A stretch of DNA of 64,000 nucleotides, from positions 7,589-71,588 of the forward strand of contig VYCW01000087.1 in assembly GCA_009843735.1 (NCBI GenBank), written 5' to 3'. The DNA is from Acidimicrobiaceae bacterium (GTDB lineage: Bacteria > Actinomycetota > Acidimicrobiia > Acidimicrobiales > Aldehydirespiratoraceae). The notes beneath the pieces were generated by a model. It worked only from the letters and a program-made list of their open reading frames with translations. It ran no database searches and was not told where the DNA came from. The position numbers and the translations under genes are program-made. Position 1 is the first letter of the stretch. Each line of letters opens with the position of its first letter. Below are positions 1 to 1,844 of the stretch, one piece after another.

Positions 1-918
1 GTCCACATCCTGGAAGCCGGGGAACTTGTTGGGTATGGCCCCCATGTCGCCGCCGCCCTGAACGTTGTTCTGGCCCCGGAGGGGGCAAAGACCCGAGCCC
101 CAGCGGCCCACGTGGCCGGTGAGCAGAGCCAGATTGCACAGCGACACCACATTGTCGACGGCGTTGTGGTGCTCGGTGATGCCGAGGGTCCACAGGATCT
201 GGGCCTTGTCCGCGGTGGCGTAGGCGTGGGCCATCTCGCGGATGGCCTCGGCGGGAACTCCGGTCTGCTCTTCGGCCCAGTCGAGGGTGTAGGACTCGAC
301 GTGGGCGGCGTAGGCCTCGAATCCCTGCGTGGAGTGGGCGATGAAGTCGGGATCGTGCAACCCGGCGTGGATGATCTCGCGCCCCATGGCGTTGGCCAGC
401 GCGATGTCGGTTCCCACCGACAGGCCCAGCCAGCGGTCGGCGAACTTGGCCGAGGACGTGCGGCGGGGATCGATGGCGTACATGCGGGACCCGTTGCCGA
501 GGCCCTTGAGGACGTGGTGGAAGAAGATCGGGTGGGCCTCACGGGCGTTGGAGCCCCACAGCAGGACGACGTCGGCCTCCTCGACCTCGGCGTAGGACGA
601 GGTTCCGCCTCCTGCTCCGAACACTGTCGCCAGACCGACGACGGAGGGAGCGTGTCAAGTTCGGTTGCAGGAGTCGATGTTGTTCGACCCGATTGCCGTG
701 CGGATGAACTTCTGGGCGGCGTAGTTCATCTCGTTGGTTGCCTTCGAGCAGCTGAACATGCCGAAGCCGTCCGGTCCGTGGCGGTCGAGGACGGCTCGGA
801 AGCCGTCGGTGGCCCGGTCGAGGGCCTCGTCCCAGGTGGCTGGACGCAGCCTCCCGTTGTCGCGCACCATCGGAGTGGTCAGCCGCGGCAGCCGCTTGTC
901 GCGTGATCGTCCGCCCAT
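1..918 (-). CDS. Formate dehydrogenase H-type molybdopterin oxidoreductase, selenocysteine-containing (3' end outside window)
   Basis: Tracked ORF 655..951 ends ...GSNNIDSCNRT at TGA 655..657. The same frame stays open to nt 1 and reads HAPSVVGLATVFGAGGGTSSYAEVEEADVVLLWGSNAREAHPIFF..., collinear with E. coli FdhF ...NNVDCCARV-U-HGPSVAGL.... ATG at 918 is preceded by AGGAGG. Confidence 0.8.
626..642 (-). other. Putative bacterial SECIS apical hairpin (GUCGUC-GGUCU-GGCGAC)
   Basis: Starts 12 nt 3' of UGA 655..657. It has a 6-bp stem (one G-U pair) and a GGUCU loop. The GGUCUG sits at the same codon offset (+7/+8) as in the E. coli fdhF SECIS. Confidence 0.55.
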
Positions 919-962
919 TTGCCCCTTTCCTCCTTGCTGTTCCCTCAGCACAGCCTCACGCG

Positions 963-1844
963 TCAGCCCAGTGACAGAGTCTCGCGGGCCTGATCCGGAG
1001 ACTGGATTCTGCCCCCCATTGACTCCACTACCTCACGGGCCCGGTGCACCAGATCCGCGTTCGACGCGAACACGCCCCGAGCGAGGTACAGGTTGTCCTC
1101 CAAGCCCACCCTGATGTGCCCGCCGAGCAGCATGGACTGGGCCACCCAGGGGATCTGGTTGGCCGACAGCGCGAAACTGGTGAACTCGGCGCCGGCCGGC
1201 AGCAGGCGGACCAGCGCGGCCAGCAGGCCCACATCGGTGGGCGTGCCGTAGGGGATGCCGGTGCACAGCTGGACCCACGGCGGATCGGCGATCAGGCCCT
1301 CGTCCACCAGCGTGTTGGCCAGCCACAGGTGGCCGGTGTCGAAGATCTCCAGCTCGGGCTTGACCCCGATCTCCCGCACTCTCTTGGCCATGTCGCGGAT
1401 CATGTTCGGGGTACTCACGTACACCTGGTGGCCCTCGCCGAAGTTGAGCGTGCCGCAGTCGATGCTGCACATGTCGGGCTTGAGGGCCTCCACGTGGGCG
1501 AGGCGCTCCAGGCCGCTCACCAGGTCGGTGCCGTCGGACCCGAAGTCGAAGGGGTCGGGATCGCCGATCAGCAGGTCACCGCCCATGCCGGCGGTGGTGT
1601 TGATGATCACGTCACCGTTGGCCGCCCTCACCTGCTCGAGCACCTGGCGGTACAGGTCCACGTCGCGGGTGCCCTTGCCGGTGGAGGGATCGCGCACGTG
1701 GATGTGCACGATGGCCGCGCCCGCATCGGCTGCCTCCAGCGCGGCCGTCGCGATCTGAGAGGGCGTTATCGGCAGGTCGGGATGCTTGCCGGCGGTGTCG
1801 CCCGCACCGGTCACCGCGCAGGTGATGATCGGGTTGCGATTCAC
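963..1844 (-). CDS. 3-keto-5-aminohexanoate cleavage enzyme family protein (BKACE/DUF849)
   Basis: 293 aa. N-terminal PIIITCAVTGAG..., HIHVRD and GHIRVGLEDN motifs are typical of BKACE TIM-barrel enzymes. GTG start. Confidence 0.85.
   Translation of the reverse strand: MNRNPIITCAVTGAGDTAGKHPDLPITPSQIATAALEAADAGAAIVHIHVRDPSTGKGTRDVDLYRQVLEQVRAANGDVIINTTAGMGGDLLIGDPDPFDFGSDGTDLVSGLERLAHVEALKPDMCSIDCGTLNFGEGHQVYVSTPNMIRDMAKRVREIGVKPELEIFDTGHLWLANTLVDEGLIADPPWVQLCTGIPYGTPTDVGLLAALVRLLPAGAEFTSFALSANQIPWVAQSMLLGGHIRVGLEDNLYLARGVFASNADLVHRAREVVESMGGRIQSPDQARETLSLG

Follow-up and report, generated by a model that had tools for sequence, protein, structure and literature searches.

The window, the whole 64,000-nucleotide stretch of DNA that was analysed, corresponds to C20:7589-71588 in the assembly of an uncultured Acidimicrobiales MAG (3.43 Mb in 140 contigs, 84.6% complete) belonging to the genus 'Candidatus Aldehydirespirator'. 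At its left edge a minus-strand open reading frame of 98 amino acids extends from a GTG start codon at position 951 to position 655. The encoded peptide ends in ...NNIDSCNRT and is followed by a TGA codon at 657..655. When the TGA is read as U, the frame remains open through base 1 of the window with the translation HAPSVVGLATVFGAGGG..., and in the contig it continues for 554 further codons past the TGA until a TAG terminator is reached. The first-pass annotation of this DNA, which proposed a selenocysteine-containing formate dehydrogenase (FDH), had described the 98-residue frame, its end at TGA 655..657 and the open continuation to the window edge exactly as found here.

The gene, designated fdhA, comprises 642 codons with a single internal TGA. 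Its 5' part of 306 codons occupies positions 1..918 on the minus strand, as defined by the translation and by matches to Pfam, to TIGR01591 and to solved FDHs, and its 3' end is located beyond the left edge of the window, at C20:6578. The true start is likely the ATG at 918..916 and not the GTG at 951. A Shine-Dalgarno sequence, AAGGAGG, can be read at 929..935 (minus strand), 10 nt upstream of this ATG, and orthologue alignments begin at residues 1-12 of the fdhA ORF. The upstream neighbor, a gene for a beta-keto acid cleavage enzyme (BKACE; window 963-1844, minus strand), ends 45 nt before the fdhA start.

The FdhA protein (P0002) contains Pfam domains Molybdopterin (244.7 bits) and Molydop_binding (90.4 bits). 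With the NCBIfam model for the formate dehydrogenase alpha subunit, TIGR01591, a score of 639.7 bits was obtained over model positions 51-672; this whole-protein score falls below the curated cut-off of 666.25. Solved FDHs, including HDCR FdhF, archaeal FDHs and E. coli FdhH, were matched with E values ranging from 4e-153 to 1e-137, the latter being the value for the E. coli enzyme. Both the U88-H89 pair and the arginine motif LRGQNNVQG are present in FdhA according to its sequence and the alignments. With the TGA translated as U, the product is predicted to be the catalytic subunit of a Mo/W-bisPGD formate dehydrogenase.

Comparison with the RefSeq entry of E. coli K-12 fdhF confirmed that the TGA occupies the position where the E. 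coli enzyme carries selenocysteine, as the earlier annotation had recognized from the motif. The two proteins share 39% identity and U140 of E. coli FdhF is aligned with residue 88. The in-frame UGA (655..657, minus strand) is accordingly assigned, from this alignment and its conservation, as U88, the predicted Mo/W ligand, with the putative catalytic histidine next to it (U-H-A-P-S). The context of the site is ...SCNRT-U-HAPSVVGLATVFGAGGGTSSYAEVEEADVVLLWGSNAR. Starting from the UGA, the codons are TGA CAC GGC CCA TCG GTT GCA GGT CTG in E. coli fdhF and TGA CAC GCT CCC TCC GTC GTC GGT CTG in fdhA, which gives both proteins the motif U-H-x-P-S-V-x-G-L. The recoding machinery, selA, selB, selD and most probably selC, is also the same in both cases. 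E. coli FdhF (Sec140; PDB 1AA6/1FDO), however, is one chain that includes an N-terminal 4Fe-4S domain and is part of the formate-hydrogenlyase complex, whereas in the present system a different protein carries the 4Fe-4S domain and the partner subunits resemble NuoE/F. FdhA is not an FdhF-type monomer but supplies the catalytic portion of an NAD-type FDH encoded by three genes, a distinction that the first-pass annotation missed.

The three-gene organization extends beyond the window. The fdhA stop codon is followed, after a gap of 3 nt, by a gene for a 587-residue NuoE-NuoF fusion protein (P0003), and the stop of the latter overlaps the start (ATGA) of a gene encoding a 287-residue Fe-S protein (P0004). 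The domains detected by Pfam in P0004 are Fer2_4, two ferredoxin-type clusters and Molybdop_Fe4S4. Since FdhA matched the FDH model only from position 51, its N-terminal 4Fe-4S domain is missing. Model positions 1-49 were matched by P0004 residues 239-287 (55.7 bits), which indicates that the Molybdop_Fe4S4 (FS0) domain is supplied in trans. In agreement with this division, P0004 residues 12-286 match residues 23-303 of Rhodobacter capsulatus FdsA and P0002 residues 11-633 match FdsA 307-932. Together P0004 and P0002 tile a normal NAD-type alpha subunit, with the cut falling between two domains.

The cofactor modules are the same as those of FdsGBA(D) from R. capsulatus or Cupriavidus necator (PDB 6TG9) and of Fdh1AB from Methylorubrum extorquens (PDB 7VW6), with P0003 comprising NuoE and NuoF like FdsG plus FdsB, or like Fdh1B. 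Those enzymes have a Cys ligand, a single fused alpha subunit and the gene order gamma-beta-alpha, whereas the enzyme described here would have a Sec ligand, an alpha subunit split after Molybdop_Fe4S4, and the gene order catalytic part, NuoEF, Fe-S part. This order was found in nearly all loci with enough flanking sequence. A fused, Cys-type relative from the same bacterial order (L053) has the conventional arrangement of NuoF followed by alpha. Some loci deviate in detail. In two Chloroflexia MAGs (L118 and L125) the catalytic and NuoEF genes, which form a tight operon elsewhere, lie about 3-3.8 kb further apart. In two other loci (L062 and L072) the match to the NuoE/F homologue is broken into two or three neighboring segments that are not in the same frame, as would result from frameshifts or from errors in the sequences of these MAGs. 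Downstream of the operon there is a divergent gene for a FocA-type formate/nitrite transporter (L009 2213-3094, plus strand). A gene of the fumarylacetoacetate hydrolase family is also located downstream (L009 3110-3901, minus strand).

The same three-subunit layout has been described by Rohwerder et al. 2020 for FDH3 of Actinomycetospora chiangmaiensis DSM 45062 (PMC7176365). FdhA3 (WP_084681743.1) has 640 residues with U80 and is devoid of an Fe-S domain, FdhB3 (614 residues) is a fusion of NuoE and NuoF, and FdhC3 (316 residues) is a separate Fe-S subunit with homology to the N-terminal part of FdsA (PMC7176365). The FDH3 proteins were detected in the proteome of this organism and formate removal was selenium-dependent (PMC7176365). 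With subunits of 642, 587 and 287 residues and U88, the Acidimicrobiales enzyme resembles FDH3 (640, 614 and 316 residues, U80), the likeness being drawn from the description in the paper. The hosts differ: A. chiangmaiensis is a cultured member of the Pseudonocardiaceae and the present genome is an uncultured MAG. Judged by its domain and gene content, the enzyme can be assigned to the three-subunit, Sec-dependent NAD-type FDHs ('FDH3' type) with tightly coupled genes. In view of the FDH3 paper, both the recoding and the split layout have already been described (PMC7176365). A literature search for Acidimicrobiia with a Sec-containing FDH retrieved no description, and neither did a search for a 'split' FdsA, although the three-subunit layout itself is in PMC7176365.

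Conservation of the TGA was followed in several sets of genomes. In a set of 40 related genomes each of the 25 orthologues, 23 from the same genus (83-97% identity) and two from other families (about 65% identity), contained one TGA within a full-length match. The TGA was at the identical codon in the 20 same-genus loci that were read. A wider scan with one genome per species, in which the genus of the closest relatives was 'Candidatus Aldehydirespirator', yielded 80 loci. The pattern ...DSCNRT-TGA-HAPSV was present in 78 of these and the remaining two were outside the search pattern. The 80 loci span at least 8 phyla and include the cultured Ilumatobacter nonamiensis as well as representatives of Acidimicrobiia, Gaiellales, Solirubrobacterales, Streptosporangiaceae, Chloroflexia, Dormibacterota, Acidobacteriota, Spirochaetia and Verrucomicrobiales. 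In a sample of 300 genomes from the phylum, the TGA was found in 33 of 36 orthologues with an identity of at least 62%. The three without it (L135, L136 and L137, from genomes G064, G248 and G292 of 7-9 Mb; about 62% identity) have TGC, encoding Cys, with a frame that is continuous at this codon, and they retain the split three-gene layout. The comparison of Cys with TGA codons that the first-pass annotation had suggested thus gave TGA in 25/25 and 78/80 loci and few TGC codons. The three TGC orthologues provide an example of Sec/Cys exchange within a clade.

The frame downstream of the TGA is also conserved. In comparison with 18 same-genus sequences, the synonymous share of codon differences was 70% downstream of the TGA and 79% upstream, a count that leaves out an orthologue with a deletion of seven codons. 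In this same-genus sequence (L040; G009:C82) the codons for GGGTSSY are missing directly past the outer SECIS stem and the protein reads ...VFGADTEVEQ; the deletion may be real or an assembly error. The substitution pattern indicates that purifying selection continues past the TGA.

These data bear on whether the TGA could be a genuine stop, with the gene being a pseudogene or truncated remnant and the downstream frame a leftover. Gene callers do cut the gene at this position. The best 120 proteins matched in a collection of 5.8 billion sequences are all fragments of 524-572 amino acids, covering 81-86% of the gene and cut at the TGA, which is the truncation by automatic annotation that had been foreseen. 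Furthermore, the N-terminal Fe-S domain is absent from the ORF, as might be the case in a remnant, but it is supplied by the second gene downstream, which belongs to a conserved operon. A decaying gene is also difficult to reconcile with over 100 orthologues from different phyla that are conserved over their full length and share a single TGA at this codon, or with the downstream synonymous share of 0.70. The truncated gene with a decayed frame in close relatives, named at the outset as an observation that would speak against selenocysteine, was not encountered; their downstream frame is intact. We consider it next to impossible that the TGA marks a pseudogene.

The sequence following the TGA contains the proposed SECIS element. 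The core hairpin, located at 626..642 on the minus strand, has the stem GUCGUC/GGCGAC and the apical loop GGUCU, and is identified from the minimum-free-energy fold and from comparative constraint. It begins 12 nt past the TGA, with GUCGUC at 642..637, GGUCU at 636..632 and GGCGAC at 631..626, and covers codons +5 to +10 (GUC GUC GGU CUG GCG AC). The GGUCU loop corresponds to nucleotides 22-26 counted from the U of the UGA, as in fdhF. The first-pass annotation had given this hairpin, its distance of twelve nucleotides and the placement of GGUCUG at +7/+8 as in fdhF correctly in every detail. In both E. coli fdhF and fdhA the codons GGU CUG at +7/+8 are in the apical loop of the hairpin at equal distance from the UGA. 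The elements differ in that the loop is GGUCU closed by a C-G pair in fdhA and GGUC closed by an A-U pair in E. coli fdhF, and in the sequences of the stems.

RNA folding, which had been recommended as a check, gave a divided outcome. The minimum-free-energy fold includes the hairpin. In terms of folding energy, this region was no better than shuffled sequences (z = +1.0), with 172 of 200 shuffles folding as well, and the GC-rich sequence context makes the thermodynamic test uninformative at this site. A scan of positions 540..720 against Rfam at E <= 10 matched no family, which means that no curated bacterial SECIS model was applicable. Since the energy was no better than shuffled and no Rfam family was matched, the significance of the hairpin rests on comparative data.

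The comparative data were obtained from a codon alignment of 79 orthologues, in which 219 columns have a conserved amino acid with degenerate codons. Over these columns the mean third-position entropy was 1.36 bit. The five lowest entropies, 0-0.1 bit, were those of residues 93-97, encoded by GTC GTC GGT CTG GCG, which are exactly the hairpin codons. The GGT codon is invariant in the hairpin but variable at other Gly positions. In 58 distinct sequences the six stem pairs were formed in 347 of 348 cells, and the changes in the stem consist of U-A/U-G and U-G/C-G/U-A shifts and one compensatory change from C-G to G-C. In the three TGC orthologues the hairpin codons vary (GGG/GGA, GTC/GTG, AGC/TCG) and the hairpin is gone. 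These orthologues serve as a natural control: because the codons vary where TGC replaces TGA, the constraint on the RNA goes together with the UGA, which is the behavior that a SECIS element should show. The hairpin is thus under selection at the RNA level. Two rare variants were seen: in L063 the loop is GGUCG, changing Leu to Arg, and in L082 the stem has a U-U mismatch, with Ala changed to Ser.

The minimum-free-energy fold also contains a possible extension of the SECIS element (614..651, minus strand), in which GCUCC (651..647) pairs with GGAGC (618..614) to form an outer stem. This outer helix is 93.8% paired across the sequences, with some covariation at one pair, and two bridging pairs are broken in about 40% of them. 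The outer stem is a possible feature with less support than the core hairpin.

The constraint on the hairpin also bears on the possibility that two polypeptides are made without selenocysteine, i.e. an N-terminal peptide of 87-98 residues and a protein of 544 residues that is re-initiated at GTG 624. This GTG is located 31 nt past the TGA and is the start used by gene callers. A break at the TGA would, however, remove the metal-ligand residue itself, and this residue is Sec or Cys in every characterized FDH (PMC8808070). Moreover, the synonymous sites that do not vary make up a hairpin of the SelB type and not a ribosome-binding site, the frame runs on through a TGC codon in three orthologues, and the genome keeps dedicated Sec machinery and a second UGA-containing selenoprotein gene. 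Re-initiation is thus very improbable.

Most of the Sec machinery, for which the first-pass annotation had advised a genome-wide search, could indeed be located. The genes selA, selB and selD scored 368, 275 and 360 bits, respectively, in each case above the curated cut-off; selA and selB are adjacent on contig C25 and selD is on contig C15. The selD gene (C15:8228-9142, minus strand) itself contains an in-frame TGA at C15:9110-9112, in the context SHGAG-U-GCK, and stem-loops are predictable directly past this UGA. It is a second selenoprotein gene in the genome.

The remaining component, tRNA-Sec, was found only as a fragment. Searches for a complete tRNA-Sec with the covariance model, with Rfam on the selA, selB and selD loci and with ARAGORN under default settings detected ordinary tRNAs only, and ARAGORN at lowered thresholds produced only noise. 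Only 31 tRNA genes are present in the assembly, and seven amino acids have no tRNA. The 3' 55 nt of tRNA-Sec are present at the very start of contig C45 (C45:1-55) and are identical to the selC sequence of relatives, while the other flank of the selC locus of these relatives matches the end of contig C96. In all five closed same-genus genomes tRNA-Sec was detected at 66-68 bits. We conclude from these matches that selC is most probably present and is broken by the assembly gap between C96 and C45. A position of selC just upstream of selA, as found in mycobacteria (PMC13449736), was considered and rejected, the fragment being located on a different contig (C45).

A remaining question is whether the UGA could be read as a standard amino acid, either Cys or Trp by a near-cognate tRNA or through a reassigned code. 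Cys can replace Sec in this FDH family, as the TGC orthologues illustrate, and a complete tRNA-Sec is absent from the assembly. However, TGA is the ordinary stop codon of five neighboring genes, so the code is not reassigned. The presence of selA, selB, selD and the tRNA-Sec fragment, and a hairpin constraint that is tied to TGA and lost with TGC, also disagree with this reading, and A. chiangmaiensis, which has the same type of enzyme, requires selenium for formate removal (PMC7176365). Decoding as a standard amino acid is therefore highly unlikely. In summary, the conservation of the TGA, the constraint on the hairpin and the nearby TGA stops led us to reject a pseudogene, re-initiation and code reassignment.

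With a probability of about 95%, the UGA in fdhA is a SECIS/SelB-recoded selenocysteine codon in the gene for the catalytic subunit of a cytoplasmic three-gene NAD-type FDH. According to this selenocysteine reading, SelB carrying Sec-tRNA(Sec) would bind the mRNA hairpin GUCGUC-GGUCU-GGCGAC and bring the tRNA to the UGA, where it would compete with release factor 2, and codon 88 would be decoded as selenocysteine. This mechanism is standard SelB/SECIS recoding and raises no new mechanistic question.

The roles of the subunits can be proposed from their domains. FdhA would be the catalytic part lacking the usual N-terminal Fe-S domains, with the Sec-His pair forming the active site. The NuoE-NuoF fusion is predicted to carry FMN, a 2Fe-2S and a 4Fe-4S cluster and would provide the NAD+ site, and the 287-residue protein would hold a 2Fe-2S cluster, two ferredoxin-type 4Fe-4S clusters and the Molybdop_Fe4S4 cluster. 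The latter cluster normally adjoins the pterin. Electrons from formate would flow from Mo/W via the Fe-S subunit and FMN to NAD+. The NuoF-type FMN/NADH domain suggests that the complex has formate:NAD+ activity. Selenium insertion, the identity of the metal, complex formation and NAD+ reduction are all features that we infer from these assignments. The gene content, including the nearby gene for a FocA-type channel, suggests that the enzyme would oxidize formate derived from C1 units to CO2.

One may speculate that the split of the alpha subunit and the permutation of the operon are not neutral but tied to Sec decoding. In a fused FdsA the UGA would lie at about codon 380; with the UGA at codon 88 of a short first gene, the products of aborted translation would be small and cluster-free. 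Sec is found in 33 of the 36 split-type orthologues of the phylum sample, which is an association and does not imply causation. Five fused relatives in the same order have no in-frame stop, with Cys confirmed in the one that was read (L053), and fused Sec-containing FDHs exist elsewhere in the phylum. As a separate idea, the 17-nt SECIS, which is nearly identical in at least 8 phyla, could mark horizontal spread of the operon. We regard these proposals as unlikely.

Sec-dependent FDH is the commonest and most widespread bacterial selenoprotein. The value of the present finding is mainly practical, as it allows annotation to be corrected for a widespread enzyme family with members in Acidimicrobiia, Thermoleophilia, Chloroflexota, Dormibacterota, Acidobacteriota and other groups. 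Judged by the best 120 matches, nearly all of its entries in public protein sets are C-terminal fragments without the active-site residue. As a result, formate oxidation and the dependence on selenium can be mislabeled or overlooked when the metabolism of these mostly uncultured lineages is reconstructed. In the sponge-associated lineage studied here, the enzyme points to a need for selenium and to a complete path by which C1 units are converted to CO2 with a gain of NADH. The only FdhD-like (sulfurtransferase) match in the assembly is located at C76:19023-19739 and has a score of 124.9 bits, with a curated cut-off of 140.9.
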